Shown piece by piece: positions 548 to 22,749 of a stretch of DNA of 38,500 nucleotides; position 1 is the stretch's first letter, and every line of letters starts with the position of its first letter. The notes below the pieces were generated by a model. It did no database searches. It was not told the DNA's origin and saw only the letters and a program-made list of their open reading frames with translations. Both the position numbers and the translations under genes were made by a program. The stretch covers positions 1 through 38,500 of the forward strand of contig JAVBQG010000054.1 in the NCBI GenBank assembly GCA_031549185.1, given 5' to 3'. This DNA comes from Synergistaceae bacterium. GTDB lineage: Bacteria > Synergistota > Synergistia > Synergistales > Synergistaceae.

Positions 548-549
548 AT

Positions 550-1401: not shown

Positions 1402-1402
1402 G

Positions 1403-2254: not shown

Positions 2255-2301
2255 CGAAACGCGGGTTACAATATGGTCAAACCGCCCGTGGGGGTGCTCT
2301 T

Positions 2302-3108
2302 TTGAACGAACTTCGTGTCTGCATGTTGCAATTCAATATCGTGGAGGGCGATCGTGGCGCGAATATCGCGAAAGCGCGGGCGATGCTGGCGGAAGTGGCG
2401 CGCGAAGACGCGCCTGACATCTTCATCCTGCCCGAACTCTGGACGACGCCTTTCGACCCCGAGAAATTGCCGGCGGGAGCCTTCTCCTGCGAGGGGAGCG
2501 AGGAGGCGGTCGCCATGATTCGCGAGGCCTGCGAACGGCTCGGCGCGCATTCCGTGGCCGGCAGCCTGCCCTGGCCCGTTCCGGAGGGCGTCGCGGTTCG
2601 AAGCTGGCTCGTCGACGATTGCGGAACGTGCGTGGATTACTACGACAAGGCGCATCTCTTCTCTCCCAGCGGCGAGAAGGATACGTTTGCGGCGGGCAGC
2701 AGACCGCTCTTCTTCGATCTCGGCGGTTTCAAGTGTTCGCTCGCGACGTGCTACGACATCCGCTTTCCTGAATATATCCGTTCGCTCGCCCTCGGCGGCG
2801 CGGAGGTTCTCTTCGTAAACGCCGACTGGCCGGCCTGTCACGAGGAGCGGTGGAGGATTCTGCTGCGTGCACAGGCGCTGAGCAATCAATTTTACGTCGT
2901 GGGGTGCAACTGCACGGGGCAGACGGGAGGCCTTGACTTCTGCGGGAGATCGATGGTCGTCTCGCCCTGGGGCGACATCGTTGCGGAGGCAGGGGCGGGA
3001 GAGGAAATACTCTTCGCGACCCTGCACCTTTCGGAAGTCCGCAAATGCCGCCGGAACATCCCTCTCTCGCGCGACCGGCGGCCGGAGCTGTACGGTCTGC
3101 TCTGTTGA
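2302..3108 (+). CDS. Carbon-nitrogen hydrolase family protein (nitrilase superfamily amidohydrolase; possible N-carbamoylputrescine amidohydrolase-like enzyme)
   Basis: CN-hydrolase signature …ILPELW…, the catalytic Cys in ATCYDIRFPE, and a Glu/Lys context. The start is taken as TTG 2302 after a GGGGTG RBS; ATG 2326 is the alternative. The long upstream extension of track ORF 1924..3108 is only open frame. It shares an operon with speAEB. Confidence 0.8.
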   Translation: MNELRVCMLQFNIVEGDRGANIAKARAMLAEVAREDAPDIFILPELWTTPFDPEKLPAGAFSCEGSEEAVAMIREACERLGAHSVAGSLPWPVPEGVAVRSWLVDDCGTCVDYYDKAHLFSPSGEKDTFAAGSRPLFFDLGGFKCSLATCYDIRFPEYIRSLALGGAEVLFVNADWPACHEERWRILLRAQALSNQFYVVGCNCTGQTGGLDFCGRSMVVSPWGDIVAEAGAGEEILFATLHLSEVRKCRRNIPLSRDRRPELYGLLC

Positions 3109-3377: not shown

Positions 3378-4382
3378 ATGGTAGTTGACAATTTTTCCAC
3401 ATCTACCTTGAAAGACGACGGCGACGTCAGTCTTATTCTGAATGCGATACTCGATCAGTCTCCCGCCGGGATTGTCGTCATCGATCCGCAGGGTGCGATC
3501 CTGATGGTCAATCGTGCGGCGCGGGAAATGTTCGATTACGACGAAAATCTGCACGGGATGGAGACCTGGGAGGAATTGTGCGAGGGCAAGGAACTGCGTT
3601 CGTTTGACAGTTCGTCGATCAACGTGGAGAGCGACCCGCTCTTTGTCGCCCTGCGGCGCAACAAACGCGTCACCAAGAGGATGCAGATCGTCACGCTGGG
3701 CACGGGGCAGGAGCGATGGGTATCCGTGACAGCATTTCCCGTCTCGGACAAGGAAGGCCGGATCGTCGCAAGCGCCGCCACGTTTCTCGACATCACGGAT
3801 TTCAAGGGGATGCAGGACGTCCTCTATCACCAGGCGACGCACGACCCGCTCACCGGACTCTCGAACCGGGCGCTCTTTTCCGCCAACCTCGTCAAGGCTC
3901 TGGCGAGGGTAAAACGCAGCAAAGCCGGCGGGGCGATCATGGCGATCGACCTGGACAATTTCAAGAAAGTGAACGACACGATGGGACACGCCGCGGGCGA
4001 CGAGCTGCTGATCAAGGTGGCGGACCGCCTCACGGGGGAGGTGCGCGAGACGGATGTCGTGGCGCGTATCGGCGGCGACGAGTTCAATATCCTGCTGCAG
4101 GATATCGAAGGCGAGGATAACGCGTCGGTCACGGGACAGATCGCGCACCGAATCTGCGACGCGCTGTCACGTCCGTTCTCCATCTGGGGGCAGAACGTGC
4201 GGATCACGTCCAGCATCGGCATCAGCCTCTTCCCTGCGAACGGAACGGATGAGGAGACGTTGCTTGCCCGTGCGGACATGGCGATGTATCAGGTCAAGGA
4301 GCAGGGTAGAAACGGTTGGAAGTTCTGGCAGGAATCGGTACAGGAGAGCAGTAATATTATTTCGCTCGAAAATATCTCGTGA
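3378..4382 (+). CDS. PAS sensor domain-containing diguanylate cyclase (GGDEF)
   Basis: The N-terminus is PAS-like (…GIVVIDPQGAILMVNRAAREMF…). The C-terminus has the GGDEF motif (RIGGDEFNILL) with an RETD (RxxD) I-site 5 residues upstream. It is preceded by about 260 bp of AT-rich DNA. Confidence 0.85.
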   Translation: MVVDNFSTSTLKDDGDVSLILNAILDQSPAGIVVIDPQGAILMVNRAAREMFDYDENLHGMETWEELCEGKELRSFDSSSINVESDPLFVALRRNKRVTKRMQIVTLGTGQERWVSVTAFPVSDKEGRIVASAATFLDITDFKGMQDVLYHQATHDPLTGLSNRALFSANLVKALARVKRSKAGGAIMAIDLDNFKKVNDTMGHAAGDELLIKVADRLTGEVRETDVVARIGGDEFNILLQDIEGEDNASVTGQIAHRICDALSRPFSIWGQNVRITSSIGISLFPANGTDEETLLARADMAMYQVKEQGRNGWKFWQESVQESSNIISLENIS

Positions 4383-4400: not shown

Positions 4401-6098
4401 TCAATCCGTTTTCCTGAAATATCCGATCAACTTTTCCCCGATCCTCGGAGCGTCGAGCGCTTCGAGGGATTTTTTTATGTCCTCCTGCGACGCGTAAGGC
4501 CTCCCCGCTGTCAGCCTCTCCGCTCTTGCCTTGCCGATGCCGGGCAGGGCCGACAACTCCGTGCGGCTGCAGGTGTTGATGTCGAGCGGATGGACGATGC
4601 CCGTGAGCGAACGGGAACCGCGATCGGTGATCATCACATCGAGTTTTTCGCCGACCTCCCGCTCCGGCGAGACGATCCCGACCAGCGGCGGATAGCTGCC
4701 GAGCTGTCTGCCGAAGAGGAGGTTCCCGCTCCGTTCCTCCGCGATGACCCCCCGCAGCAGGGTTCCGTCGGGCGCCACCCGCGCGAGCATGGCGGGGTCG
4801 GCCTCCGCGCGAACCCACTCCTTCCAGCGACGATACTCCCGTTCCTTCACGCGCGAGGGGTTTTCGCGGAGCAGGCCCTCCAGACGCGAACCGGGGAACA
4901 CCATTGCCCGCCGGATGTTGATGCGCCGCACGGCGAGGTTTTCATCCAGCAGCGTCCGCAGGAATTTTTCGTTCCAGACGAGGCTCTCCTTGGAGTCGCT
5001 CGCGAGGCCGACGATGAAGTTGAGTCCCGGCAGCAGGGAGGGGAGGGCGTTCGGGGTTTTACGGATAAAACCGACCTCGTTAATCAGGCGGACGGCGGAG
5101 ACTGCCTCCTCCAGAGAAACTTTGAGGCCATTTAACGAATAGACGCCCGGATCCATGCATTCGATACCGAGCGACAGGCCGTCGCCCTCGGTGTTGTGGC
5201 GGACGATGGCCTCCAGGCAGCCGTATGACTCGTCGGGAAAGTTCGCGATCGTCAGGGGGTTGCAGTTGTCCGTGTGCAGCACGGAGAGGTCTGGCGCAGC
5301 GGTGCGGATACTCGCGTAGAGCTCCTCCATGCGCACAGGGTTCGGACGGATGCCCTTGTTCGTCGGCTGGCCGCCCCAGGCGAGGATGTTGGCGCACCGA
5401 CCCAGCCGGAAGGCGCGAACGCCGCACGAGGCAAGCGTACGCACTTCAGACGCGATGCCCGCAGCGGAGCGCTCTTCATAGAGGGCGCTCGCTCCCTCCG
5501 TGCAGAAGCTGCATCGTCCGTCTATGCGGTCGCAGCCGCGCGAGAGCTCCATCTCGGCAATGATGTCCGGGTACATGGGGTGCTGCCGCACGATCTCCGC
5601 TCCCAGCGGCGCGATCTCGTCGAGCTGCCGGTAATTTCTTCTCGCGTCGCTCCGCCATTCGCCGCTTCTCAAAAAAATATCAAGCGACGCCTCGGGGTCG
5701 CCGGTGGCGAGAAAGTCGACGCCCTCCGGCAAAATTTTGACGGCGTGCGTGCCGCCGCGCAGCGTATACCCGGCGTGCACGGGGCCTGCCAGAATCAGTT
5801 GCCCGCCGCGCGGGGAGCGGGCGATCGTCTCGAGTTCGCGCAGCGTGAGGGGCGAGCCGCCGCGATAACGCCCCGGCACGGTGAGCCCCATCACGACGAA
5901 GACGATGTCCGACGAGCGGAGAAGTTCTTTTCGCTCCTCCTCGGAGGACGTACGCCATACGTCACACGTCCGGTACGTCGCGGCATATCCGTGCGCGCAA
6001 AGTACGCCCGCCGCGTAGCGCACGTACGGCGAGATATACGGAGGCACCCCGAAGCATGCGGGTTCGTCCACGTAACCGTCTATGATCAGGGCGTTCAT
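4401..6098 (-). CDS. Radical SAM superfamily protein with C-terminal helix-hairpin-helix motif (COG1031-like)
   Basis: Cys cluster …RGCDRIDGRCSFCTEG…, a long alpha/beta core, and a C-terminal HhH (LSALPGIGKARAERL). The start is chosen at ATG 6098 (MNALIIDGY…); the track ORF begins at an upstream TTG at 6119. Confidence 0.75.
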   Translation of the reverse strand: MNALIIDGYVDEPACFGVPPYISPYVRYAAGVLCAHGYAATYRTCDVWRTSSEEERKELLRSSDIVFVVMGLTVPGRYRGGSPLTLRELETIARSPRGGQLILAGPVHAGYTLRGGTHAVKILPEGVDFLATGDPEASLDIFLRSGEWRSDARRNYRQLDEIAPLGAEIVRQHPMYPDIIAEMELSRGCDRIDGRCSFCTEGASALYEERSAAGIASEVRTLASCGVRAFRLGRCANILAWGGQPTNKGIRPNPVRMEELYASIRTAAPDLSVLHTDNCNPLTIANFPDESYGCLEAIVRHNTEGDGLSLGIECMDPGVYSLNGLKVSLEEAVSAVRLINEVGFIRKTPNALPSLLPGLNFIVGLASDSKESLVWNEKFLRTLLDENLAVRRINIRRAMVFPGSRLEGLLRENPSRVKEREYRRWKEWVRAEADPAMLARVAPDGTLLRGVIAEERSGNLLFGRQLGSYPPLVGIVSPEREVGEKLDVMITDRGSRSLTGIVHPLDINTCSRTELSALPGIGKARAERLTAGRPYASQEDIKKSLEALDAPRIGEKLIGYFRKTD

Positions 6099-6183
6099 CC
6101 CGGTCTTCGTCCCATGCAAGCACTTCTTTCTTATGATAGAATATCCTGCGACAAAAAAATTTTTGGCGAGGAAGGTGGCACAT

Positions 6184-6930
6184 ATGGCGCAATTTTATCG
6201 CGATCCCGCGAAGATTGCCACGTTTTTGGAGAAGTGGATCAAAGACGCTTTCGCGAAAAGCGGCGCGAAGGGAGCGGCACTCGGCCTTTCGGGCGGCGTG
6301 GATTCCGCGGCGCTCGCCGCGCTGTTGCGCCGTATCTGTTCGAAGGACGACCTGCTCGCCGTCATCATGCCCTGCCACAGCATGCCGGTCGACGAGGAGC
6401 ACGCGCGGCTCGTCGCAGGCGCTCTCGACATTCCCGTGAAAAAAATCGATCTGACGGAGGCCTTCGACTGTTGCGTGGCGGCGATGGAGGCGAGCGCGGG
6501 CGCGCTTTCGCCCATCGCTCGGGCCAACATCAAGCCGCGCCTGCGCATGACGACGCTCTACGCGGTGGCGCAGAGCCGCAATTTTCTCGTCTGCGGCGGC
6601 GGCAACAAGGACGAATTGACCTACGGCTACTTCACGAAACACGGCGACTCCGGCGTCGACCTGCTGCCGTTCGGCGACCTGCTCAAGGGCGAGGTCTTCG
6701 CGCTGGCGAAATACCTCGGCGTGCCGGACGCGATCGTCGATAAACCGCCGACCGCCGGCCTCTGGGAGGGGCAGACGGACGAGTCCGAGATGGGCGTGAG
6801 CTACGCCGACCTCGATTGTTTCATCGCGACGGGCGGGGGAGACGCCGCCGTCTGCGAGCGGATCGAAAAAGCGCGCGAAAGGTCGGAACACAAGCGCAAC
6901 ATGCCACCGATCGCTTCGGTTCCCCGATGA
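6184..6930 (+). CDS. nadE: NH3-dependent NAD+ synthetase
   Basis: PP-loop SGGVDSA, typical length (249 aa), and GAGGAAGG RBS before ATG 6184. Upstream in-frame sequence in track ORF 6082.. has no RBS. Confidence 0.9.
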   Translation: MAQFYRDPAKIATFLEKWIKDAFAKSGAKGAALGLSGGVDSAALAALLRRICSKDDLLAVIMPCHSMPVDEEHARLVAGALDIPVKKIDLTEAFDCCVAAMEASAGALSPIARANIKPRLRMTTLYAVAQSRNFLVCGGGNKDELTYGYFTKHGDSGVDLLPFGDLLKGEVFALAKYLGVPDAIVDKPPTAGLWEGQTDESEMGVSYADLDCFIATGGGDAAVCERIEKARERSEHKRNMPPIASVPR

Positions 6931-6994
6931 ACAACAGACGAATAGAGGCGCGGGGGCTGCCTCCGCCAACGCCGGATATATTCGAGTCGTTGTA

Positions 6995-7045
6995 GGGACG
7001 GCCACTGGCCGTCCGCGGACGCGCAATGCGCGTCCCTACGGGTGC
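6995..7045. repeat. Composite REP-like palindromic element, copy 1: GTAG-[GGACGGCC act GGCCGTCC]-gc-[GGACGCGC aat GCGCGTCC]-CTAC
   Basis: Two tandem perfect 8-bp-stem hairpins enclosed by a GTAG/CTAC outer stem. The 3' module GGACGCGCAATGCGCGTCCCTACGG is repeated identically at 10362-10386. Confidence 0.5.
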
Positions 7046-7083
7046 AGCGTTATATTGTGATTACGTATATGAGGTGAATCGAT

Positions 7084-7833
7084 ATGTCAGGACATTCGAA
7101 ATGGGCGAATATAAAGCATCGTAAGGCGGCGCAGGACGCGAAGAAGGGCGTCGCATACCAGCGGCTGACGAAGAACATCATCGCGGCGGCGAAGGCGGGC
7201 GGGGGCGATCCCAACGCCAACTTCCAGCTCAAGGTCGCGATCGACCGTGCGCGCGAGGGCAACGTGCCGATGGACAACATCGAGCGCGCGGTCAAGCGCG
7301 GCAGCGGCAACCTCGAGGGCGTGACCTACGAGGACATCACGTACGAGGGATACGGCCCCGGCGGCGTCGCCGTCATGGTCGAGGTCAGCACGGACAACCG
7401 CAATCGCACGGCGCCGGAGATGCGCGTGCTCTTCACGAAGACCGGCGGCGCCATCGGCGAGGTCGGCTGTGTGGCGTGGAACTTCGAGCGCAAGGGCGTC
7501 ATCACCGTGGCGGGCAAGGGCGTCGACGAGGACGAGCTGCTCGGCGTGGCCATCGACGCGGGCGCGGAGGACATGACGCACGAGGAAGAGGATTACGAGA
7601 TCACCTGCGAACCCTCGGTGCTCTCGGACGTGGCGTCGGCCATTCGCGACGCGGGCTACGTGGTCAGCGGCGCGGAGACGACGCTGGAGCCGAAGAACAC
7701 CGTCGAGGTGAAGAAGAAGGAAGAGGCCGCCAAGCTGATGGCGATGATCGAGCGCTTCGAGGAGCACGACGACGTACAGAACGTCTACTCGAACTTCGAC
7801 ATCCCGGACGAAATTCTGGCACAGCTGGACTAA
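7084..7833 (+). CDS. yebC: YebC/PmpR family DNA-binding transcriptional regulator
   Basis: MSGHSKWANIKHRKAAQDAKKG… is the canonical N-terminus. 249 aa, GAGGTG RBS. It sits upstream of ruvCAB, as is common. Confidence 0.9.
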   Translation: MSGHSKWANIKHRKAAQDAKKGVAYQRLTKNIIAAAKAGGGDPNANFQLKVAIDRAREGNVPMDNIERAVKRGSGNLEGVTYEDITYEGYGPGGVAVMVEVSTDNRNRTAPEMRVLFTKTGGAIGEVGCVAWNFERKGVITVAGKGVDEDELLGVAIDAGAEDMTHEEEDYEITCEPSVLSDVASAIRDAGYVVSGAETTLEPKNTVEVKKKEEAAKLMAMIERFEEHDDVQNVYSNFDIPDEILAQLD

Positions 7834-7845
7834 AGGGCGCTATTC

Positions 7846-8346
7846 TTGATCTGCTTCGGGATCGATCCGGGGCTCGGCCTGCTGGGCTACGGGGTGGTGC
7901 GGCAGGAGGGCGATATGCTGCAGGCTCTCGACTACGGGGCTATCGCGACCGAGCCGGGGGATCCGATCTCGAAGCGCCTGCACGATCTGTACGGCGCGCT
8001 GCGGGCGAAGATCGCCGAGCACAGGCCGGACGTGATTGCCGTCGAGCGCCTCTACTTCGGGCGCAACGTCACGACGGCGGAGATGGTCTACCAGGCGCGC
8101 GGCGTGATCATGCTGACGGCGGCGGAGTTCGGTTTCGTGCCGTACGAGCCGAAGCCGGCCGAGGTGAAGATGGCGGTCTGCGGTAACGGCGCGGCCGAGA
8201 AGTCGCAGGTGCAGGGCATGGTGCGCTATCTGTTGAATTTGAAGGAAATTCCACGCCCCGACGATGCGGCGGACGCGCTGGCGATCGCGGTCACGGGGCT
8301 TTCGCTGGCGATATACGAACGAGGGAACGGCAGGGGACTGCAATGA
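7846..8346 (+). CDS. ruvC: Crossover junction endodeoxyribonuclease RuvC
   Basis: TTG start. The N-terminus (M)ICFGIDPGLG… and catalytic Asp/Glu context match RuvC. 166 aa. Confidence 0.85.
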   Translation: MICFGIDPGLGLLGYGVVRQEGDMLQALDYGAIATEPGDPISKRLHDLYGALRAKIAEHRPDVIAVERLYFGRNVTTAEMVYQARGVIMLTAAEFGFVPYEPKPAEVKMAVCGNGAAEKSQVQGMVRYLLNLKEIPRPDDAADALAIAVTGLSLAIYERGNGRGLQ

Positions 8347-12927: not shown

Positions 12928-13560
12928 ATGGAGGTACGCGAGACGAGGATTGGCGTTTTTCTGGACGAATTGGCGAGCGGCAAACCGACTCCCGGCAGCG
13001 GCTGCGTCGCCGGGCTCTGTGGCGCGCTCGGGGCGGCGCTGGTATCGATGGTCGCGGGACTGACGGCCGGGCGCGAACGGTACGCCGACGTCGACGAGAA
13101 GATGCGCAAGATTCTCGAGAGCGCGAAGACGATGCTCGGGACGTTCTCGAAACTGGCCGAGGACGATATGGTCGTCTACGAGGAGTACATGACCGCGCTC
13201 GGCATGCCGAAGTCGACCGAGGCGGAGCGAGACGTCCGAAAAAGAGCGCTGTCGACGAGATCGAAGCTGATCGTCTCCGTACCGCTCGACATCGCCGAAC
13301 AATCCGTCGCGCTGGGAGCGCTCGCGCTCGACGCGCTGGAGCACGGCAACAGGAATGCCTCCATGGACGCGGCGGCGGCTGTGCAACTCGCCCTCGTGAC
13401 CGCGAAGATCGCGTCGAACGACGTGCGCTTCAATCTGCGCGGCATCAAGGATGCGAAGTTTGCGAAGGCGGTCGGCGGGCGCCTGGAGATCGTCATGAGG
13501 GACATCGCGGGGATTGCCTCGACGTCGGAGGCCTTTTTCGGGAGCCTGCTGAAGAGTTGA
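12928..13560 (+). CDS. Cyclodeaminase/cyclohydrolase family protein (FTCD C-terminal-domain-like; methenyl-THF cyclohydrolase-like)
   Basis: The FTCD_C-type sequence …GKPTPGSGCVAGLCGALGAALVSMVAGLT… is present. 210 aa. GGAGGAGG RBS. Confidence 0.7.
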   Translation: MEVRETRIGVFLDELASGKPTPGSGCVAGLCGALGAALVSMVAGLTAGRERYADVDEKMRKILESAKTMLGTFSKLAEDDMVVYEEYMTALGMPKSTEAERDVRKRALSTRSKLIVSVPLDIAEQSVALGALALDALEHGNRNASMDAAAAVQLALVTAKIASNDVRFNLRGIKDAKFAKAVGGRLEIVMRDIAGIASTSEAFFGSLLKS

Positions 13561-13589
13561 GAGTACACGAGCTCTCTCGGGAGGATGCC

Positions 13590-14132
13590 ATGCCGCGCAT
13601 GAGAAGCGTCCTCTCCCGCGCGGGGTGTCCGGAACTTCTTTCGAACGTGTCGCCCGACATATTGAGCCTCGCGAAGGGCGTCTATGCGGAGGCGCTTGGA
13701 GTTGCCGTCCCTCGCGCCGTCTCTTGGTCGTTGGCGGGAGACGATCTTCCGGCCGAGCTGACCCCGCCTGAATTGGAGGGCTTCCGCTCGTATACCGTTA
13801 TCTCCGCGACGCTTGGAGACGCGCTGGATGAGAAGATCGCCGAGCGTTTCGCCGCTGGAGCGCCGCTTGAGGCGACGCTGTACGACGCCTGGGGCTCCGA
13901 GGCCGTGGAGACTCTCGTCGACAACGTGGATCGCAGATTGCGCGCCGAAAACGGAGATGGAAGCGTCCGCTTCGCCCCCGGCTACGGAGGGTTCGACGTG
14001 CGCAACAACGCGAGGTGGCTCGACCTCCTCGCCGCAAACGGCGAAAGTGACGCCGGCGTGACGGCGAACCGGGAAACCGGCATTCTGTCGCCGAGGAAGA
14101 GCGTTTTATGCATGATCGGGTGGAAGGGATAG
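13590..14132 (+). CDS. Stand-alone methionine synthase activation-domain-like protein (AdoMet-binding reactivation module of MetH)
   Basis: ATG 13590 after a GGGAGG RBS; the track ORF starts at an upstream TTG at 13557. About 180 aa with weak but recognisable similarity to the MetH C-terminal activation domain. The adjacent metH lacks this domain. Confidence 0.55.
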   Translation: MPRMRSVLSRAGCPELLSNVSPDILSLAKGVYAEALGVAVPRAVSWSLAGDDLPAELTPPELEGFRSYTVISATLGDALDEKIAERFAAGAPLEATLYDAWGSEAVETLVDNVDRRLRAENGDGSVRFAPGYGGFDVRNNARWLDLLAANGESDAGVTANRETGILSPRKSVLCMIGWKG

Positions 14133-14358
14133 GCGGGGCGCAGGGAGAACTCCCTCCGACCCGCCTTCGGCGGGCCACCTCCCTCTAAGGGGGAGGCAGG
14201 GGACACCTATGTAAGCGCGTTGTTTTCTTATGGGCTGTTGATTTTTGACAGAGTAAGGAGAGGATTCGTTTTCTTGAAGAAAACAAAGCGTTATCCATGC
14301 GTCTTTTGTCTCCCTCTCCGAGGGGGATGTCATACGAAGCATGACAGGGGGAGTTCTT

Positions 14359-14387
14359 TTGACTCCGTTTTTTATAGATTTTATTAT
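14359..14387 (+). promoter_or_regulatory. Putative sigma70-type promoter of metF-metH (TTGACT-N17-TATTAT)
   Basis: -35 at 14359-14364, 17-nt spacer, -10 at 14382-14387, about 30 nt before the metF ATG, with AAGGG as RBS. Confidence 0.45.
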
Positions 14388-14416
14388 CTCATTCCACGCA
14401 AGGGCAGTGATCGAAT

Positions 14417-15319
14417 ATGAAGATTGACTCTATTTTAGCAGGGGGGCAGGCGCTCTCGTTCGAGGTCTTTCCGCCGAAGCCGGAGCTCGACCAGGACCTG
14501 TCCGGGATCCGCAGGACGCTCTCCGACCTCACGGTCGCGGAGCCGGATTTCGTCTCCGTAACGTACGGCGCGGGGGGCAACAACCGTCCGCGGGCGCTGG
14601 ACATCGCCGAGATGATCCTGGCGCTCGATATGGTGCCGCTCTCCCACCTGACGGCCGTCGGCTACACGAAAGAGGACACGGCGCGTGTGCTGGCTTCGCT
14701 GGCCGCGCGCGGCGTGAAGAACATTCTGGCGCTGCGCGGCGACATTCCGGTAGGAGCGCCGGATGACATCGACCACTGGAAGGACTTCGCGAAGGCGCGG
14801 GACCTCGCCGCGTACGTCGCCTCCTGCGACGCGCGCGAAAAATTTTGCATCGGAGGCGCTGCCTACCCCGAGGGGCATCCGCAGAGCGTATCGCCCGCGG
14901 TCGATATCGAATTCATGAAAGAGAAGGTCGAGGCGGGCACCTCGTTCTTCATCACGCAGCTCTTCTTCGAGGACGAGACGTTTCTCCGCTTCATGGATCG
15001 CGTTCATGCCGCGGGGCTGGATGTACCGGTCATCGCGGGCATCATGCCGGTCTTTCAGGCGAAACAGATCAAGCGCATCGTCGAAATATCGGGCTGCTCG
15101 GTGCCGGAGGAGCTCGCCGTCCTGCTCGATCGCTACGAGAATGATCACGAAGCGATGGCCGACGCGGGCGCGGACTACGCGGCGGGCCAGATCCGGAATC
15201 TGTGGGATAACGGCGTGAGCGGCATTCACGTCTATACGATGAACAAAGCCGCCCGCGTCCTCGACATTCTGAGGCGCTGCGGCATGTCGACGAAGAGGGA
15301 GAGAGGAGCGATTCGATGA
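14417..15319 (+). CDS. metF: 5,10-methylenetetrahydrofolate reductase
   Basis: MetF TIM-barrel motifs are present (…SFEVFPPK…, …VTYGAGG…). 300 aa. Confidence 0.9.
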   Translation: MKIDSILAGGQALSFEVFPPKPELDQDLSGIRRTLSDLTVAEPDFVSVTYGAGGNNRPRALDIAEMILALDMVPLSHLTAVGYTKEDTARVLASLAARGVKNILALRGDIPVGAPDDIDHWKDFAKARDLAAYVASCDAREKFCIGGAAYPEGHPQSVSPAVDIEFMKEKVEAGTSFFITQLFFEDETFLRFMDRVHAAGLDVPVIAGIMPVFQAKQIKRIVEISGCSVPEELAVLLDRYENDHEAMADAGADYAAGQIRNLWDNGVSGIHVYTMNKAARVLDILRRCGMSTKRERGAIR

Positions 15320-17658
15320 TCTCGCGGAGTGAGTTTAGAGCGCTGCTGGAGAGTCGGACGCTGATGCTCGACGGCGGTTACGGCACCAGCTTCTTCGAGA
15401 TGGGCTTTGGGGATGTTCCCGGAGAAAAGTTGAATCTGGAACACCCTGAAGCCGTGGAGGCGCTGCACAGAAATTACGTCGAAGCAGGCGCGGACATCCT
15501 GCTCACGAACACCTTCGGAGGCAACCGCAGCAAGCTGGCGGAGACGCACCTGGAGAACGATATCAGGGAGATTCACTCGTCGGCGGTCGCCATCGCGCGC
15601 CGCGCTGCGAAAGGTGCCGCGCGTCGCGTACTCGTGTTCGGGGATATTTCCTCCACGGGAAGGCTGCCTGCGCCGAGCGGCGAGGGCAGCTTTGCCGAGT
15701 GTCGCGAGGTCTACCGAGAGCAGGCGTCTCTTCTGCTCGAGGCCGGGTGCGACGGTCTGATCGTGGAGACGATCACCGACGTCAAAGAGCTGAAGGCCGC
15801 TGTGATCGCGGTACGCGAGCTGTCGACGGACGTCCCGCTGATCGCGCAGATGGCGTTCGACGCCGCCGGCACGACGCTGACCGGCGCGTCGGTCGAGGTC
15901 TTCGCCGCCGTGTTGAACGACCTCGACGTCGACGTCCTCGGCATGAACTGCCTTGTCGGGCCGGACGAAATGTTGCCGAATCTGCGCCGCCTCGCCGCCT
16001 GCACGGATCGTTTCCTGTCGGTGGAACCCAACGCGGGCGATCCGATTTTCGACGGGACGAAGACGATCTATCCGACGAGCGCCGTCGATTTTTCCCTCTT
16101 CGTGGAGGAGTTCGTCGAGGCGGGCGCGTCGATCGTCGGCGGCTGCTGCGGTACATCGCCGGAGCACATTCGCGCCGCGGCCGCGCTCGTTCGCGACATC
16201 ACGCCGGCCGGCCGGGCCCGTCGCAAGGTGTCGCTCCCGCCTCGCCTCGCTTCGCGGACCGTCGTCCACGATATGGACGGTTTTGCCGTGATTGGCGAGC
16301 GCATCAACCCGACGGGCCGCAAGCCCTTGCGCGATTCGATGCGCGAGGGCGACTGGGGGCGCATGCTCGACGAGGCCGCCGCCCAATCGCGCGAGGGGGC
16401 ACACGTGCTCGACGTCAACTTCGGCGTGGAGAAGTTCTTTACCCCGGAGAAGGTGGTCGACGCTTTCATCGCCCTCGACCGGGCGACGACGGCCCCGCTG
16501 TCGCTGGACATCCAGACGCTCGAACTGATGGAGGCCGCGCTGGCGGACTATCCCGGCAGGCCGCTCGTCAACTCGACGGCCTGCGACCGGGCCTCGCTGG
16601 AGAAAAAACTGCCTCTGCTGAAAAAGTACGGCGGCATGATGATCCTCCTCGCGATGAAAGACGACATCGCGCACAGCGCAGACGAGCGGATGCGGGCCGT
16701 GGAGGAGGCGCTTGCGTACGCCGAGACCCTTGGGGTCGCGCGCGACCGCTTTCTGATCGACCCACTGGCGCTGTCGCTGGGGACGGGTTACGACCACCGC
16801 GTCACGCTCGAGGTCGTCCGGTGCTGTACGGAGCGGGGACTCCTCACGACGATGGGCCTCTCAAACCTCTCGCATGGGATGCCGAATCGCTCGGGCATCA
16901 ACGCCGCCTTCCTCTCGCAGGCGATCGAGGCTGGCTTGTCGTCCGCGATCATGAACAGCGGCGACGAGGTCGTGATGCAGACGCTCTTCGGCGCCCAGCT
17001 GCTCAAGACCGGGGAGCTGGAGGACCGGGTGGGCGACACGCAACTCGACCCGCTGGTGGAAGCCCTGCTCTCCGGCCGCGGAAAGACCGCGGACGGACTG
17101 GTCGACGAAAAACTCGCCGGGGGTATGGCGCCGCTCGACGTCAGCCAGTCCTTCCTGGGCGGCGCGATGGAGACGGTGGGCGCGCTCTATGAGGCGAAGA
17201 AGATATTCCTGCCCCACATCCTCTTCGCGGCGGAGACGGCGTTCCCCATCTTCGACCGGCTGAACGGGATGATGGCGGGCGCAGTCGCGACGCGCGGCAA
17301 GGTTCTGCTGGCGACGGTCGAAGGCGACATCCACGACATCGGCAAGAACATCGTCGGCACGGTGCTGCGCGCGGGCGGTTTCGAGGTCGTCGATATCGGC
17401 AAGAACATCACGGCAGGGGAGATCGCCGAGGCGGCGGAGCTGCATAGGCCGAACGTCGTCGGCCTCTCGGCCATGATGACGACGACCGTCGGGCGTGTGG
17501 CGGAGGTAGGCGCTCTGTTGAAAGAGCGCGGCGTAAATGTCGTTGTGATCTCGGGAGGAGCCTCCATGAGCGCGGAGCTCGCGAGCCTCTTCGGCGTTCG
17601 CTACGCGGCGGACAGCAGCGGCGCACTGTCGCTCTGCAAGGAGCTCGTGAAAAAATAG
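15316..17658 (+). CDS. metH: Cobalamin-dependent methionine synthase, short form (Hcy-binding, pterin-binding and B12-binding domains; no activation domain)
   Basis: ATGA overlap with metF. Homocysteine S-methyltransferase N-terminus, pterin-binding barrel, and B12-binding DxHxxG (DIHDIG). 780 aa, ending after the Rossmann B12 domain. Confidence 0.9.
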   Translation: MISRSEFRALLESRTLMLDGGYGTSFFEMGFGDVPGEKLNLEHPEAVEALHRNYVEAGADILLTNTFGGNRSKLAETHLENDIREIHSSAVAIARRAAKGAARRVLVFGDISSTGRLPAPSGEGSFAECREVYREQASLLLEAGCDGLIVETITDVKELKAAVIAVRELSTDVPLIAQMAFDAAGTTLTGASVEVFAAVLNDLDVDVLGMNCLVGPDEMLPNLRRLAACTDRFLSVEPNAGDPIFDGTKTIYPTSAVDFSLFVEEFVEAGASIVGGCCGTSPEHIRAAAALVRDITPAGRARRKVSLPPRLASRTVVHDMDGFAVIGERINPTGRKPLRDSMREGDWGRMLDEAAAQSREGAHVLDVNFGVEKFFTPEKVVDAFIALDRATTAPLSLDIQTLELMEAALADYPGRPLVNSTACDRASLEKKLPLLKKYGGMMILLAMKDDIAHSADERMRAVEEALAYAETLGVARDRFLIDPLALSLGTGYDHRVTLEVVRCCTERGLLTTMGLSNLSHGMPNRSGINAAFLSQAIEAGLSSAIMNSGDEVVMQTLFGAQLLKTGELEDRVGDTQLDPLVEALLSGRGKTADGLVDEKLAGGMAPLDVSQSFLGGAMETVGALYEAKKIFLPHILFAAETAFPIFDRLNGMMAGAVATRGKVLLATVEGDIHDIGKNIVGTVLRAGGFEVVDIGKNITAGEIAEAAELHRPNVVGLSAMMTTTVGRVAEVGALLKERGVNVVVISGGASMSAELASLFGVRYAADSSGALSLCKELVKK

Positions 17659-17674
17659 TGGGCTTGCAAAAAAA

Positions 17675-17713
17675 CCGAGGTCGCGGGCTTTTGCCGGCGA
17701 CCTCGGTTTTTTT
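17675..17713. terminator. Bidirectional rho-independent terminator shared by metFH (+) and the convergent ser operon (-)
   Basis: A7 run, then CCGAGGTCGCGGGC-TTTT-GCCGGCGACCTCGG (14-bp stem with one mismatch), then T7 run. There are U-tracts on both strands. Confidence 0.75.
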
Positions 17714-17823
17714 GCCTGATACCAAGTTTGCAGTCAAAGGATTTTTTCGAGTGCGGCAAACCGCTCTGCAGGTGGGTTTGAACGCCTCACCCTTCAGACC
17801 TTTGATTTCAAATTGGTATGAAT

Positions 17824-18477
17824 TTACAGCCCCTTCTGCTCCGGCAGGTCGAAGCCCTCTCCCAGGAAGTGCGCGTCGCCCATAAGGCTCACCCTCGGGG
17901 CTTGGTTCTCGCGCAGCTCGGCGACCGTGAGACTGCAGTTGGCGATCTGGAAGCTCCAGAAGCTCGACAGCGGCGCGCCGAGGAAGTGGCAGAGGAGCAC
18001 CTTGATCACCGCGTCATGAGCGGCGACGCAGACGTCGCCGCTGTGTTTTTTCGCCAGTGTTTCGACGGTCTCGATCGAGCGTACCTGAACGTCCCGCAGC
18101 GCCTCGCCGCCCTCGCCCGGCATGATGACGGTGTGGGGGGAGGAGTGCCAGAGGTCGAGCACTCGCGGCCAGCCCTTCTGTACCTCGGAGGAGAGCAGCC
18201 CCTCCCAGTCGCCGTGGTTGATCTCCGTGAATCCCTCCACGATCTCGAACGCCTCGCAGTGGCACGTCGCGGCGATCTTCTCGGCCGTGATCCGCGCGCG
18301 CGCGAGTGGGCTCGTGGCGACCGCCTCGAACTTTCCGTCCATCCGGCCCGCCAGATAGGCGGCGATCTTGTCGGCCTGGGCGAGCCCGAACTCGCTCAAG
18401 TCCGTGTCCTGCTGCCCCTGGAAGCGCCCCTCGCGGTTCCAGAGGGTCTCGCCGTGCCGTACGATGAAGAGCCGCAT
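17824..18477 (-). CDS. Histidine phosphatase (phosphoglycerate mutase-like) superfamily protein; candidate phosphoserine phosphatase
   Basis: N-terminal RHGE motif (MRLFIVRHGETLWN) and typical dPGM-fold length (217 aa). The start codon overlaps the serA stop (TAATG). Confidence 0.75.
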   Translation of the reverse strand: MRLFIVRHGETLWNREGRFQGQQDTDLSEFGLAQADKIAAYLAGRMDGKFEAVATSPLARARITAEKIAATCHCEAFEIVEGFTEINHGDWEGLLSSEVQKGWPRVLDLWHSSPHTVIMPGEGGEALRDVQVRSIETVETLAKKHSGDVCVAAHDAVIKVLLCHFLGAPLSSFWSFQIANCSLTVAELRENQAPRVSLMGDAHFLGEGFDLPEQKGL

Positions 18478-20135
18478 TATTCTGTCTCTCCGTTGAGAGT
18501 CACCATCGTCGCCCAGAGCATGTCGGCGTCCCTGGCGATGGTGTTGCAGAGTTCGTCGCTCAGTTTGCCGTCGACCTCCATCACGGCGAGGGCGAGGCCG
18601 CTCGCCTCCTTGCGCCCAAGCGCGAAATTCGCGATGTTGACGTTCGCGTCGCCGAGCATCTTCCCGAGCTTGCCGATGACGCCGGGGCGGTCGTGGTTCT
18701 GGAAGAGCAGAAGGTGGCCGTGCGGCACGAAGTCGATCCAGTAGTCGTTGATCTTGACGATGTGCTGGCGCCCCTCCTCGGTAATGGTGCCGGTGAGCTT
18801 CGCTGTCGTCTTGCCCGCTTCGACCGTGACCTCGATGACGTTGCGGTAGGTCCTCGGCTCGCCGCTGCTCTCCTCGATCGCGATGCCGCGCTCCTGCGCG
18901 AGCAGCGGCGCGATCATGTAGTTGACGTCGGGGCCGTGCGTGACTTCGAGCAGGCCCTTCAGAAAGGCGATGGTATAGGGGTGCAGCGCGCCCGCCGCGT
19001 CGTCCTCGTCGCAGAGCTGCGTGCCGCGCAGCATGACCTTGCAGGTCTGTACCGCGCCGCCCTCTGCGTCGACCAACTGTGCGATCAGGATGCCCATCTT
19101 GCGGGCGAGGCGCAGGTAATTTTTCTGTATCTCGTTCAGGTGCTGCTCCATGAAGGGGAGATTGACCGCGTGCTCATACTGCTCGCCGCGCAGGGCTGCC
19201 AGCAGGTTGGTTACGGCGATGCGCGCGACCTCGGTTTGCGCCTCCTGCGTGCTCGCTCCCAGGTGCGGGGTGAGCACCACGCGGTCGGCGATCTCCTTCG
19301 CGAGCAGGGGGTGATCCTTCGCCGGCGGCTCCTGCGTGAAGACGTCGAACGCCGCCCCGGCCAGGCGCCCCTCGCGGATCGCCTCGGCGCACGCGGCCTC
19401 GTCGACCACGCCGCCGCGCGCGCAGTTGATCAGAAACGCGCCCGGCTTGAAGGCGCGCAGCATCTTCTCGTCGATGAGGTTGCGCGTCTCCTTCGTGATC
19501 GGCACGTGCAGCGACACGAGGTCGACCAGCGCCAGGGTCCCCGCCAGATCGTCGGCCACGGCGATGCCGAGAGTCTGCGCCTTCTTGGGCGAGATGAAGG
19601 GGTCGTACCCGATCACCTCCATGCCAAACGCGCGGCAGCGTTGAGCGACCGCGACGCCGATGCGGCCGAGGCCCACGACGAGAATTTTTTTCCCGTTGAG
19701 CTGGCGGCCGGTGAAGTTCTTGCGCTCCCATTTGCCGGCGGCGAGCGACGCGTGCGCCTGAGGAGTCTTGCGCACCAGCGCGAGCATCAGCGCCATCGTC
19801 TGTTCGGCTGCGGCTAGCGTGTTGCCGGTGGGCGCGTTGATGACGACGATGCCCCGCTTGCTCGCTTCGGGCAGGTTGACATTGTCGACGCCGACCCCCG
19901 CGCGGGCGATGACCTTGATGTTCGTCGCCGCGTCGATGGCCTCTTTGTCCATCGTGGTGCCGCTGCGCGTGATGATCGCGTCGTATTCGTACAGCGACTT
20001 CAGCAGCTCCTCGCGCGCCATCGAGCTGTCGACCGTCAGGTCCACGTCGTTCGCCGCGCGGAGCATGGCAAGCCCCTCTTCGCCGAGCGGCTCCGGCACC
20101 AGAACCTTGAACTTTTCCCCTTTCGTCGGGCTCAT
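18477..20135 (-). CDS. serA: D-3-phosphoglycerate dehydrogenase (with C-terminal ACT domain)
   Basis: 2-Hacid-DH NAD-binding motif GLGRIGVAVAQ, catalytic His/Glu/Arg context, and a C-terminal ACT domain. The start is taken at ATG 20135 (MSPTKGEKFKVLV…) after a GGAGGGG RBS; the track ORF is extended upstream to 20216. Confidence 0.9.
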   Translation of the reverse strand: MSPTKGEKFKVLVPEPLGEEGLAMLRAANDVDLTVDSSMAREELLKSLYEYDAIITRSGTTMDKEAIDAATNIKVIARAGVGVDNVNLPEASKRGIVVINAPTGNTLAAAEQTMALMLALVRKTPQAHASLAAGKWERKNFTGRQLNGKKILVVGLGRIGVAVAQRCRAFGMEVIGYDPFISPKKAQTLGIAVADDLAGTLALVDLVSLHVPITKETRNLIDEKMLRAFKPGAFLINCARGGVVDEAACAEAIREGRLAGAAFDVFTQEPPAKDHPLLAKEIADRVVLTPHLGASTQEAQTEVARIAVTNLLAALRGEQYEHAVNLPFMEQHLNEIQKNYLRLARKMGILIAQLVDAEGGAVQTCKVMLRGTQLCDEDDAAGALHPYTIAFLKGLLEVTHGPDVNYMIAPLLAQERGIAIEESSGEPRTYRNVIEVTVEAGKTTAKLTGTITEEGRQHIVKINDYWIDFVPHGHLLLFQNHDRPGVIGKLGKMLGDANVNIANFALGRKEASGLALAVMEVDGKLSDELCNTIARDADMLWATMVTLNGETE

Positions 20136-20139
20136 CGTC

Positions 20140-21282
20140 CTACCCCTCCATCCATACGTCGTAGGCTTTCGCCATAAAATCGCCCGCGTTTTTGCGCGCG
20201 TCGCCCATGGCGGCATAGAGGCCCCCGAGGGCGAGCGAGATCTCCGGCCAGTTGAAGTCGCCGTAGTGTGCCATGCGGATGATCTTGCCCTTGAGCTCCG
20301 CCTGCCCGCCCGCGGGATCGATGCCCATCGCCTTCAGCGCCTTCGAGACGGCGGCGGTGTCCCCATTCGGCAGCGAGAAGGCGGTCACGCCCGGCGAACG
20401 GAAATTTTTATCCTTCACGAGCGGCTCGTAGCCGAGCGCTTCCAACCCGGCGACGAAAGCGCGGGCCGCGCGGGTGCGGAAGGCGAACCAGTTCTCGGGG
20501 TCGCCATGGGCGAGAATTTCATCCAGCGCCGTTTCGAGGGCGTAATAGAGCGATACCGGGGGGGTGTATGGATTTTCGGGCGTGTCCTTGTAGAGCACTT
20601 TTTTCTGCCGCATGAGGTCGAAGTAGTAGTTGGCGCACTTTCTTTCCGCCGCTGCCTCCCAGCCCCGCTCGGAAACCCAGACGAGCGCGAGGCCCGGGGG
20701 CGTGAGCAGACCCTTCTGCGAGGCTGTCGCGAGGGCATCGATGCCCCACTCCTGCGGATAGCAGGGCATCGCGCCGGTCGAGCTGACGCCGTCGACCAGC
20801 ACGAGCGGCCTCTTCTCCTTCGGCAGCGCCGCGACGATCTCCTTGATCGGGTTCATCACGGCGGTCGACGTCTCGTTCTGCGTCAGGAGCAGCACGGTGC
20901 AATTCGGGTTTTTCTTTACGGCTTCCGCGACGAGCTCCGGCGTCGCGCCGCTGCCCAGGGGGACGTCGACTGCCGTCACGTTCGCGCCGTACAGGGCCGT
21001 GATCTCGCGGAAGCGGTCGCCGAAGACGCCGCACGAGACCGACAGAACGTCAACGCCCGGTCCCGTGAAGTTGGCCGCGAGGCACTCGAGCCCGCCGGTG
21101 CCCGCCGCAGGGAAGATGACCGTGCGCCCCTCGCTCTTGAGCAGCTTTGCCAGTTTCTCCTCGACGCGGGTGAAGAGCTCCGAGAAGGCCTTGCCCCTGT
21201 GTCCGACGAGCGGGCGCGCCTGGCTGAGCGAAACTTCAGGGGTGACCGCGACGGGTCCTGGTGTGAACAGATACTGATTCAT
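20140..21282 (-). CDS. serC: Class V aminotransferase (serine-pyruvate / archaeal-type phosphoserine aminotransferase)
   Basis: Class V aminotransferase fold with the PLP-Lys context …TASQKGLL…. 380 aa, GGAGGTG RBS, 4 nt upstream of serA. Confidence 0.8.
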   Translation of the reverse strand: MNQYLFTPGPVAVTPEVSLSQARPLVGHRGKAFSELFTRVEEKLAKLLKSEGRTVIFPAAGTGGLECLAANFTGPGVDVLSVSCGVFGDRFREITALYGANVTAVDVPLGSGATPELVAEAVKKNPNCTVLLLTQNETSTAVMNPIKEIVAALPKEKRPLVLVDGVSSTGAMPCYPQEWGIDALATASQKGLLTPPGLALVWVSERGWEAAAERKCANYYFDLMRQKKVLYKDTPENPYTPPVSLYYALETALDEILAHGDPENWFAFRTRAARAFVAGLEALGYEPLVKDKNFRSPGVTAFSLPNGDTAAVSKALKAMGIDPAGGQAELKGKIIRMAHYGDFNWPEISLALGGLYAAMGDARKNAGDFMAKAYDVWMEG

Positions 21283-21314
21283 AAAAACACCTCCATAAGA
21301 TTTGCGTATCGTTT

Positions 21315-21352
21315 AAAAAAAGAGGAGTCGACCTTTTTAGGGTCGACTCCTC
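21315..21352 (-). terminator. Intrinsic terminator inside the serC 5' leader (attenuator terminator)
   Basis: On the minus strand: GAGGAGTCGACC-CTAAAAA-GGTCGACTCCTC (12-bp perfect stem) followed by TTTTTTT. It lies only about 33 nt before the serC start codon. Confidence 0.7.
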
Positions 21353-21399
21353 GTCTCTTCTCTCGATGTGCCGAAATTTTTAGCCGTTGTCGAGCGGGA

Positions 21400-21537
21400 T
21401 CAGGCGCTGCAATCCTCCGAGGCGAGAAGTCGATCAATAGACCAGGAAGCTCCGGACGTAGAGTCGGAGCTGGAGGAGGATCCCATTCCACAGAGGTGCC
21501 CATAAATAGCTGTGCCAAACGCTTCGTTCCGTGTCAT
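21400..21537 (-). CDS. Candidate leader peptide (45 aa) MTRNEAFGTAIYGHLCGMGSSSSSDSTSGASWSIDRLLASEDCSA, with a Ser-codon run
   Basis: ATG 7 nt after a strong GGGAGGG RBS. Nine Ser codons fall within 14 codons (TCC TCC TCC AGC TCC GAC TCT ACG TCC GGA GCT TCC TGG TCT). The stop lies 48 nt before the terminator. It is too short to appear in the ORF track. Confidence 0.45.
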   Translation of the reverse strand: MTRNEAFGTAIYGHLCGMGSSSSSDSTSGASWSIDRLLASEDCSA

Positions 21538-21594
21538 GGTCTTTCCCTCCCTCGCGATCGAAATCCCGCGCCCTTTATTTGCGCGACGCGTAAA

Positions 21595-21623
21595 CTTATA
21601 TCACCCTGTGCAAAATATGTCAA
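21595..21623 (-). promoter_or_regulatory. Putative promoter of the ser leader transcript (TTGACA-N17-TATAAG on the minus strand)
   Basis: -35 is 21623..21618 and -10 is 21600..21595. It begins 17 nt after the oadB-like stop. Confidence 0.4.
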
Positions 21624-21639
21624 TGGTTTTTTCGAAATC

Positions 21640-22749
21640 TTAACCTCCCAGATACGCCAGCAGTATGCCGCCCGCCAGGACGGAGCCGATCTGTCCCGAC
21701 ACGTTCGCTCCCACTGCGTGCATCAGGAGGAAGTTGTTCGGGTCGGCCTGTTGCCCCAGCCGCTGGATGACGCGCGAGGACATCGGAAACGCGCTGATGC
21801 CCGCGGCTCCGACCATGGGGTTGACTTTCCGCTCTTCGGGGAGAAAGAAGTTGAGGATCTTCGCCGAGATCACGCCGCCCGCCGTGTCGAAGACGAACGC
21901 GATCAACCCCATGCCGATGATGATGAGGGTGTTTTTGTTGACGAAGTCAGCCCCCGTCATCGTGGCCGAGATAGAGAACCCGAGCAGGATCGTAACGATG
22001 TTGGCGAGCTCGTTCTGCGCCGCCTGCGCGAGACGCCTCGTGACGCCGCTCTCGCGGATCAGGTTGCCGAACATCAGAAAGCCGATCAGGGCGACCGAAG
22101 CGGGGGCCACCAGCCCCGCGACGAGCGTCACGATAATGGGGAAGAGGATCAGCTTGGTGCGCGACACCTCGACGTGCGCGTAGCGCATCCGCATCTTTCG
22201 CTCCTTCTCCGTCGTAAGCAGTTTGATCACCGGCGGTTGAATGAGCGGTACGAGCGCCATGTACGTGTAGGCTGCGACCGAAATCGGCGCGAGCAATCGC
22301 GGCGCGAAGCGGTTCGCCACGTAGATCGACGTCGGCCCGTCGGCCGCGCCGATGATGCCGATGGAGGCGGCTTCGAAGATGTTGAAGCCGAGGAGCGTGG
22401 CGAGCCCCATGGTGAGGAAGATCCCCGCCTGCGCCGTGAGGCCGAAGAGGAACATCAGCGGGTTAGACAGGAGGGGAGTAAAATCGCACATCGCGCCCAC
22501 CGCGATGAAGATCAGAAGGGGGAAGAGTTCGTTCGAAATGCCGCCGCGAAAGAGCATGTCGAGCGCGCCCTCGATCATCTTGCCCCCCGCCATATGGTCG
22601 AGCGCGGAGGACATCGGGAGGTTCACCAGGATCGTGCCGAAGCCCATGGCGAGTAGCAGGTTCGGCTCGTAATCCTTGGCAATTGCCATCCACATAAGAA
22701 AACCGCCGACCGCAAGCATCAGAAGCTGTTGCCATTCAAAACCGAGCAT
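21640..22749 (-). CDS. Na+-transporting decarboxylase beta subunit (OadB/MmdB/GcdB family membrane protein)
   Basis: Polytopic membrane protein of the OAD_beta family type (…GIIGAADGPTSIYV…, …MFGNLIRESGV…). The start is chosen at ATG 22749 (MLGFEWQQ…), giving 370 aa; the track ORF extends to 22860. Confidence 0.8.
   Translation of the reverse strand: MLGFEWQQLLMLAVGGFLMWMAIAKDYEPNLLLAMGFGTILVNLPMSSALDHMAGGKMIEGALDMLFRGGISNELFPLLIFIAVGAMCDFTPLLSNPLMFLFGLTAQAGIFLTMGLATLLGFNIFEAASIGIIGAADGPTSIYVANRFAPRLLAPISVAAYTYMALVPLIQPPVIKLLTTEKERKMRMRYAHVEVSRTKLILFPIIVTLVAGLVAPASVALIGFLMFGNLIRESGVTRRLAQAAQNELANIVTILLGFSISATMTGADFVNKNTLIIIGMGLIAFVFDTAGGVISAKILNFFLPEERKVNPMVGAAGISAFPMSSRVIQRLGQQADPNNFLLMHAVGANVSGQIGSVLAGGILLAYLGG

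Follow-up and report, generated by a model that had tools for sequence, protein, structure and literature searches.

What could be the substrate of a small histidine phosphatase whose gene begins on the stop codon of serA? This question is raised by a 38,500-nucleotide stretch of DNA from a Synergistaceae bacterium (assembly GCA_031549185.1, contig JAVBQG010000054.1, positions 1 to 38,500 of the forward strand), which was analyzed as a whole and is referred to below as the window. A 217-amino-acid open reading frame (ORF) follows serA, the gene for D-3-phosphoglycerate dehydrogenase (PGDH), and had been proposed in the initial annotation as a candidate phosphoserine phosphatase (PSP) outside the HAD type. 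The proposal is supported by comparative evidence, namely the placement of the protein in one clade with four characterized PSPs, a histidine residue (H88) and a C-terminal tail typical of that clade, and a conserved synteny with serA. The gene thus probably encodes (with a rough probability of 0.8) a metal-independent PSP of the histidine-phosphatase fold ('type 2', iPSP/PspA-like, or 'SerB2') and would form the last cistron of a leader-aminotransferase-serA-psp operon. PSPs with this fold have been known since 2012 and are now termed 'type 2' PSPs (bioRxiv 10.1101/2023.03.10.532031).

The phosphatase gene and its junction with serA

The phosphatase ORF, identified as a type 2 PSP candidate from the ORF list, Pfam, homology, and a structural model, occupies 17824..18477 on the minus strand. 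Its product starts with MRLFIVRHGET, in which R7-H8-G9 form the RHG motif, and matches the Pfam family His_Phos_1 with 187 bits (E 3.7e-55), a score that identifies the ORF as a real gene and not a chance reading frame. An RHG phosphatase of this length starting on the serA stop had been noted before, with no strand given; on the minus strand the junction reads ...GAATAATGCGG, where the serA stop TAA (18479-18477) and the phosphatase ATG (18477-18475) overlap by 1 nt (TAATG). The catalytic set comprises R7, H8, N14, R60, E85, and H154, all of which are invariant in the clade alignments described below. In iPSP1/HFP numbering, roles in the phosphate pocket have been described for R8, H9, R58, H149/150, N15, and E82 (PMC12051542). 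The nearest homologues (58-86% identity) come from Synergistaceae metagenome-assembled genomes, Cloacibacillus porcorum, and Synergistes, and carry no labels other than 'histidine phosphatase family protein', 'probable phosphoglycerate mutase', or 'PhoE'.

A 308-aa ORF at 17818..18744 on the plus strand runs antisense to the phosphatase gene and the 3' end of serA and appears to be a GC-rich shadow ORF. The window has further long ORFs of this kind, one of them at 19768-22656 (plus strand, 962 aa); they look like artefacts of stop-poor, G+C-rich sequence rather than genes.

Placement among characterized histidine phosphatases

Among proteins of known structure, the top sequence match was PSP1 of Hydrogenobacter thermophilus (4ij5, E 4e-30), followed by Geobacillus PhoE, the histidine-fold PSP of Entamoeba, and CobC. 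Hydrogenobacter, from which the initial annotation had cited metal-independent PSPs as a precedent, is also the source of this closest solved relative (iPSP1/PspA, HTH_0103). A profile of the clade, for which members from Synergistota, Negativicutes, Eremiobacterota, and cyanobacteria were combined, scored 207 bits on iPSP1, 158 on PhoE, and 132 on CobC. The sequences of four assayed type 2 PSPs, one of which (TLR1532) was compared over part of its C-terminal domain, were taken from supplement 1 of bioRxiv 10.1101/2023.03.10.532031. By blastp, the window phosphatase shares 36% identity with Caur_0633 (Chloroflexus), 35% with both HTH_0103 (Hydrogenobacter) and PERMA_0343 (Persephonella), and 45% with TLR1532 (Thermosynechococcus) over part of the C-terminal domain; the values for PhoE and CobC are 34% and 27%, respectively. 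In a neighbor-joining tree with these two proteins as outgroups, the Synergistota phosphatases nest among the characterized PSPs, and a split between PhoE plus CobC and all other sequences is recovered in 175 of 200 bootstraps. The genome-derived cyanobacterial homologues form one clade with TLR1532 in all 200 bootstraps.

Two sequence features accompany this placement. The residue H88 (within EINHGDWEG) aligns with H85 of iPSP1 (EIDHG) and is invariant across all three clade alignments; the same column holds Leu in PhoE and Phe in CobC. The second feature is a C-terminal tail of the form ...HLG-x6-9-[AG][LI], which is present in every member of the clade, including the three characterized PSPs (3/3) whose C-terminus was compared. 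The tail of the window phosphatase, ...HFLGEGFDLPEQKGL, ends in PEQKGL and aligns with ...CHLGEFYVEAHKAI of iPSP1, ...CHLGHLATTREQQHAL of Caur_0633, and ...YFLGDLFIPALDAL of PERMA_0343; in Caur_0633 the tail, HLGHLATTREQQHAL, ends in REQQHAL, and the C-terminal Leu is invariant in one of the three clade alignments. His85 of iPSP1 is reportedly needed for PSP activity, and its C-terminal region is said to be tied to activity as well. In the preprint from which the assayed sequences were taken, the terminal sequences are called critical for PSP activity, with reference to Chiba 2013 (bioRxiv 10.1101/2023.03.10.532031).

An AlphaFold 2 model of the phosphatase reached a predicted local distance difference test (pLDDT) value of 94 and is confident except for the last four residues. 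The best structural matches in PDB were 4ij6 and 4ij5, with template modeling (TM) scores of 0.87-0.93 and root-mean-square deviations of 1.5-1.7 A. PhoE, GpgP, and CobC are nearly as close to the model by TM-score, and therefore the fold alone does not assign a substrate. With other family members this close behind iPSP1, fold comparison was rejected as a substrate discriminator.

Conservation of the serA linkage in related genomes

A search of genome contigs, with one genome per species, yielded 80 loci, in which neighboring genes were identified by tblastn with the SerA and aminotransferase sequences of the window. The order aminotransferase-serA-phosphatase was found in nine Synergistota loci, including those of Aminivibrio and Acetomicrobium, with phosphatase identities of 42-66%, and the pair serA-phosphatase was present on two further short Synergistota contigs. 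Altogether, the phosphatase gene lies directly after serA in 11 of the 15 Synergistota genome loci (L002-L016). The same pair occurs in three Negativicutes loci and one Eremiobacterota locus; in Phascolarctobacterium (L015, Negativicutes) the full triplet is present, the Aminotran_5 gene ahead of serA being confirmed by Pfam. Cyanobacterial homologues adjoin neither serA nor an aminotransferase gene.

In 14 of the 15 loci with this synteny, the junction between serA and the phosphatase gene measures between -4 and +8 nt, taking the form of ATGA, TGATG, TAATG, or a gap of a few bases, and thus translational coupling appears as a conserved feature. The operonic placement behind an aminotransferase gene and serA, which had been cited as support for the PSP assignment, gains weight in this comparison: three phyla retain the serA linkage together with a junction of the coupling type.

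The aminotransferase, serA, and the predicted pathway

The upstream gene serA (18477..20135, minus strand) encodes a long-type PGDH with intervening and ACT domains according to Pfam and TIGR01327, and it passes the cut-off of the latter PGDH equivalog model (583 vs. 454 bits). Compared with ATG 20135, the longest serA ORF (18477-20216, 579 aa) begins 27 codons farther upstream, which would make it run into the aminotransferase gene, and the PGDH model aligns to it only from residue 37. The true start is probably ATG 20135, which is located 4 nt past the aminotransferase stop TAG (20142-20140) behind a GGAGGGG ribosome-binding site.

The first gene of the operon (20140..21282, minus strand) had been called serC, a label that needs to be revised. 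On the basis of Pfam, hidden Markov models (HMMs), and PDB matches, its product is a class-V aminotransferase (Aminotran_5) of the AGXT/serine-pyruvate subfamily and a presumed phosphoserine aminotransferase of the Sll1559/'SerC3' type rather than a canonical SerC; serC models gave only 18-34 bits. Among solved structures, it is closest to serine, serine-pyruvate, serine-glyoxylate, and alanine-glyoxylate aminotransferases as well as to MJ0959 (2dr1, 6pk1, 3zrp, 2z9u; also 1iug).

In the predicted pathway, SerA would oxidize 3-phosphoglycerate, and the AGXT-type aminotransferase would convert the resulting 3-phosphohydroxypyruvate to phosphoserine, as reported for Synechocystis P74281. The phosphatase would then hydrolyze O-phospho-L-serine via a phospho-His8 intermediate and release serine. 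By analogy with iPSP1, the phosphate may be held by R7, R60, and H154, with E85 as the acid/base, while H88 and the flexible C-terminal tail may recognize the serine moiety and close over it. With the phosphatase translationally coupled to serA, the operon could cover the whole three-step route that leads from 3-phosphoglycerate to serine.

The window had also been described as showing no HAD-type serB, and the searches agree with this: a HAD-type phosphatase was found neither in Pfam scans of the main window ORFs nor, as far as HAD-type PSPs are concerned, by tblastn with five such enzymes in the 38.5-kb window and 81 loci. A broader proposal is that an AGXT-type aminotransferase, PGDH, and a histidine-fold PSP constitute a self-contained, non-canonical pathway, which would be the sole serine route in many Synergistota, be controlled by a ribosome-mediated Ser attenuator, and use the invariant ...EQxGL tail as a substrate-closing lid. 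This combined picture is tentative, and its chance of holding in full is put at slightly less than even.

A serine-rich leader peptide and a putative attenuator

The region upstream of the aminotransferase gene has, judging from its sequence, the layout of a classical leader-peptide attenuator. A leader ORF of 45 aa at 21400..21537 (minus strand), MTRNEAFGTAIYGHLCGMGSSSSSDSTSGASWSIDRLLASEDCSA, preceded by a GGAGGG ribosome-binding site, was recognized from sequence and conservation. It contains the Ser run SSSSSDSTSGASWS, with seven Ser in 10 residues encoded by codons at about 21480-21439. An intrinsic terminator at 21315..21352 (minus strand), supported by terminator prediction and folding, consists of a 12-bp GC-rich stem, GAGGAGUCGACC/GGUCGACUCCUC (21352-21322), followed by U7, and lies about 30 nt upstream of the ribosome-binding site and ATG of the aminotransferase gene. 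Folding of 21335-21450 identified an antiterminator segment, GAUCGACUUCU, at 21423..21433 (minus strand) within the 3' end of the leader ORF; its pairing partner is the 5' arm of the terminator. When the terminator 3' arm was omitted, GAUCGACUUCU paired with the 5' arm to give the antiterminator, and the full sequence folded into the terminator.

Given this arrangement, stalling of a ribosome at the Ser codons would leave the antiterminator free to form, and a ribosome reaching the leader stop codon would cover the antiterminator segment, so that the terminator forms. Scarcity of charged seryl-tRNA could thereby switch the operon on through stalling in the leader peptide. The terminator and antiterminator were assessed for the window locus, and leader ORFs were compared across the nine syntenic Synergistota loci. 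Ser-rich leader ORFs (at least six Ser in 10 residues, no more than 360 nt upstream of the aminotransferase gene) were found in six of these nine loci, whereas no more than 3.3% of background tiles reach the same level of at least six Ser in 10 residues. The putative Ser attenuator mentioned in the initial annotation can thus be described as a Ser-rich leader ORF with a terminator, the former recurring among relatives.

T-box and riboswitch elements were considered as well and set aside: Rfam gave no match upstream of the operon, whether the gathering threshold or a limit of E <= 1 was applied, except for chance matches on the terminator hairpin, and a leader-peptide attenuator is therefore preferred. 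Classical attenuators in the trp, his, leu, thr, and ilv operons share the small ORF that follows a ribosome-binding site and contains a cognate-codon run, the overlapping antiterminator, and the terminator before the first gene. In contrast to them, the regulatory codons here are those for Ser (UCC/AGC/UCU) and the host phylum is Synergistota. Paenibacillus serine operons use a T-box, whereas the operon in the window has a leader-peptide layout. No described Ser-codon leader-peptide attenuator was found in a limited literature search.

Regarding the boundaries of the operon, a promoter-like site, TTGACA-17 nt-TATAAG with a TGn upstream of the -10 box (21595..21623, minus strand), was recognized by eye; a promoter scan rejects it, the last base being G. 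At the other end, a bidirectional intrinsic terminator, A7-CCGAGGUCGC...GCGACCUCGG-U7 (17668..17706, given for the minus strand), was identified from sequence with a partial terminator-scan match. It lies about 115 nt past the phosphatase stop, just after the stop of the convergent metH gene, and marks the end of the operon. The three genes hence lie between a single promoter-like site with one leader on one side and a single terminal terminator on the other. The phosphatase gene is the last cistron of this unit, which appears to respond to seryl-tRNA charging, and this placement is an independent argument that the protein takes part in making serine.

Points against the assignment and alternative functions

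Several observations weigh against the PSP assignment. Three homologues from uncultured Synergistaceae (L005-L007) do not adjoin serA. In these loci, a 47%-identical homologue lies at around 4700-8100 between two sodium:dicarboxylate symporter family genes; it retains the equivalent of H88, its tail ends in ...FVSKSL, and it could be either a relocated orthologue or a paralogue. In the subclade of the window phosphatase, the His of the tail motif is displaced by one residue (HFLG). The PspA equivalog model of NCBIfam (NF045917) scores the window phosphatase at 138 bits against a cut-off of 350, and the CobC model TIGR03162 gives an almost equal 128 bits against a cut-off of 162.9. Moreover, substrate specificity is hard to predict and labile in the histidine phosphatase superfamily. 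Aquifex HFP, a homologue whose structure is close to that of iPSP1, was reported as a phosphatase of the riboflavin pathway (PMC12051542); it is only about 23% identical to the window phosphatase.

The model scores can be read against a calibration. Authentic iPSP1 reaches 405 bits on the PspA model and 148 bits on TIGR03162, and the cyanobacterial relatives that group with TLR1532 reach 128-131 bits on PspA and 134-143 bits on cobC. Since these relatives of an assayed PSP also miss the PspA cut-off, the PspA model is narrow, and failure to reach it is weak or uninformative evidence on function. The missed cut-off excludes an Aquificales PspA equivalog, not the functional class. Curated HMM thresholds were consequently discarded as a deciding test, with neither the PspA nor the cobC cut-off reached and the calibration showing that they cannot settle the matter.

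Among other functions, the phosphatase could act at a different step, on 3-phosphohydroxypyruvate or 3-phosphoglycerate, with the aminotransferase then converting hydroxypyruvate to serine in a hybrid or non-phosphorylated route. Members of the serine-pyruvate/alanine-glyoxylate subfamily usually take an unphosphorylated keto substrate, the best PDB matches of the aminotransferase include a 'serine aminotransferase' (2dr1), a serine-glyoxylate aminotransferase (6pk1), and 3zrp, with serC models unreached, and the histidine-fold PSP of Entamoeba was crystallized with 3-phosphoglycerate (6m1x). Nevertheless, this route is considered unlikely: an aminotransferase of the same type is a characterized 3-phosphoserine transaminase in Synechocystis (P74281, according to PMC9026213), and the phosphatase belongs to a clade assayed on L-phosphoserine and retains the PSP-associated His and tail. 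It is quite unlikely, too, that the protein is a PhoE-like acid/sugar-phosphate phosphatase of broad specificity, which would have no dedicated role and owe its place in the operon to chance or to a housekeeping need. The fold of PhoE is nearly as similar (TM 0.87/0.91), its identity is 34%, and specificity in the family is plastic, but such an enzyme would have to be reconciled with a serA linkage and a -4 to +8 nt junction kept across three phyla and with a Ser-codon leader over the operon. PhoE also lacks both the His85 equivalent and the tail, and 175 of 200 bootstraps place it outside the clade.

The default automated guess for such proteins is CobC, the alpha-ribazole-5'-phosphate phosphatase of cobalamin synthesis. 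CobC (6NRU, 6E4B) belongs to the same superfamily, is similar in length, and resembles the model with TM-scores of about 0.81-0.87; the 128 bits on TIGR03162 and the B12-dependent metH gene convergent next door could also be taken in its favor. On the other hand, this score is below the cut-off and authentic iPSP1 scores higher, a second CobC model (NF011580) gives 90 bits against a cut-off of 250, and CobC shows 27% identity, has Phe in place of the His85 equivalent, and lacks the conserved tail. A CobC-type context in orthologs, which had been named, in combination with a canonical serB elsewhere, as a point against the PSP proposal, was looked for: no cobalamin-synthesis gene was found among the main window ORFs or around the related loci inspected (L005, L015, L063). 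A functional link to metH was rejected, as the two genes are convergent, metH lies on the opposite strand beyond the terminator, and its neighborhood is not conserved whereas that of serA is; tblastn found neither metH nor metF near the phosphatase gene in any related locus. The CobC function is therefore regarded as very improbable. The least probable function, and an extremely doubtful one, is a cofactor-dependent phosphoglycerate mutase (dPGM) feeding 3-phosphoglycerate to SerA. It would be compatible with the shared superfamily and with the frequent label 'probable phosphoglycerate mutase' among homologues, but the scores on dPGM models (18-54 bits) stay below the cut-offs (225-421), and solved dPGMs (about 230-270 aa, compared with 217 aa here) align with the clade profile only over the N-terminal ~110 positions. 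In addition, iPSPs reportedly lack mutase activity.

Relation to known systems and implications for annotation

The assignment as a type 2 PSP is not a new idea, as a serA-linked SerB2 was already predicted in 2022. Ashniev et al. 2022 predicted in gut genomes a SerB2 of family PF00300, about 32% identical to the Hydrogenobacter PSP and co-localized with serA in Peptoniphilus, and a SerC3 aminotransferase of family PF00266 in an operon with serA (PMC9026213). The logic and the protein types are the same as in the window operon; the serC3-serA-serB2 triplet, Synergistota, and a Ser leader peptide are not described in the main text of that paper. In Synechocystis, the class-V aminotransferase P74281/Sll1559 is reported as a 3-phosphoserine transaminase and Slr1124 as a PGM-like PSP (Klemke et al. 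2015, cited in PMC9026213). The window operon has a presumed AGXT-like phosphoserine aminotransferase and a histidine-fold PSP candidate in common with that pathway. PGDH is said to supply the first step in Synechocystis. While the cyanobacterial homologues lie apart from serA and the aminotransferase gene, the window carries all three genes in one operon with a putative attenuator.

The characterized type 2 PSPs (HTH_0103 with structures 4IJ5/4IJ6, PERMA_0343, Caur_0633, and TLR1532) share with the window protein the His_Phos_1 fold, the catalytic residues, the His85 equivalent, and the tail, at 35-45% identity. The window protein differs from them in scoring below the PspA cut-off, in its tail (PEQKGL, with the His displaced by one), in its serA operon with coupling and a Ser leader peptide, and in its origin from a mesophilic, amino-acid-fermenting Synergistaceae lineage rather than an autotroph. 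It is also a single-domain protein, whereas TLR1532 has two domains. TLR1532 is a 52-kDa protein with two His_Phos_1 modules, of which only the C-terminal one matches the clade, and an ORF in a Prochlorococcus locus (L020, 5833-6648) likewise reaches upstream of the matched module.

What is new here includes the three-gene arrangement and its conserved coupling in Synergistota and Negativicutes, the annotation markers, and the putative Ser-codon leader attenuator. For the enzyme itself the conceptual gain is small: it would amount to an annotation fix rather than a new kind of enzyme, closing the gap of a 'missing serB' in Synergistota and in the related genomes from Negativicutes and Eremiobacterota. 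In metabolic reconstructions these organisms may be counted as having no PSP, given that automated labels read 'histidine phosphatase family protein' or 'probable phosphoglycerate mutase'. The combination of EI-x-HG-x-WEG, an HLG...[AG][LI] tail, and serA adjacency could serve as a marker set when the PSP annotation is transferred. More novel is the conserved leader peptide with its Ser codons, which may deserve its own follow-up.

Other features of the window

Convergent with the operon, a one-carbon cluster on the plus strand (12928-17658) contains an FTCD_C cyclodeaminase gene, metF, and a metH gene for a 780-aa B12-dependent enzyme, together with a 191-aa ORF (13557-14132) that has no Pfam match. 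A polyamine cluster (385-3108, plus strand) encodes spermidine synthase, an arginase-family agmatinase, and a carbon-nitrogen hydrolase that is likely N-carbamoylputrescine amidase, and is followed by a gene for a PAS-GGDEF protein (3378-4382). Next to it, about 1.7 kb carries long ORFs on both strands (4401-6119, minus; 5274-6743, plus), for which Pfam gave only a sub-threshold match to HHH_3. The remaining genes of the window include ruvCAB with queA, oadB with oadA, and rpoBC with downstream genes.

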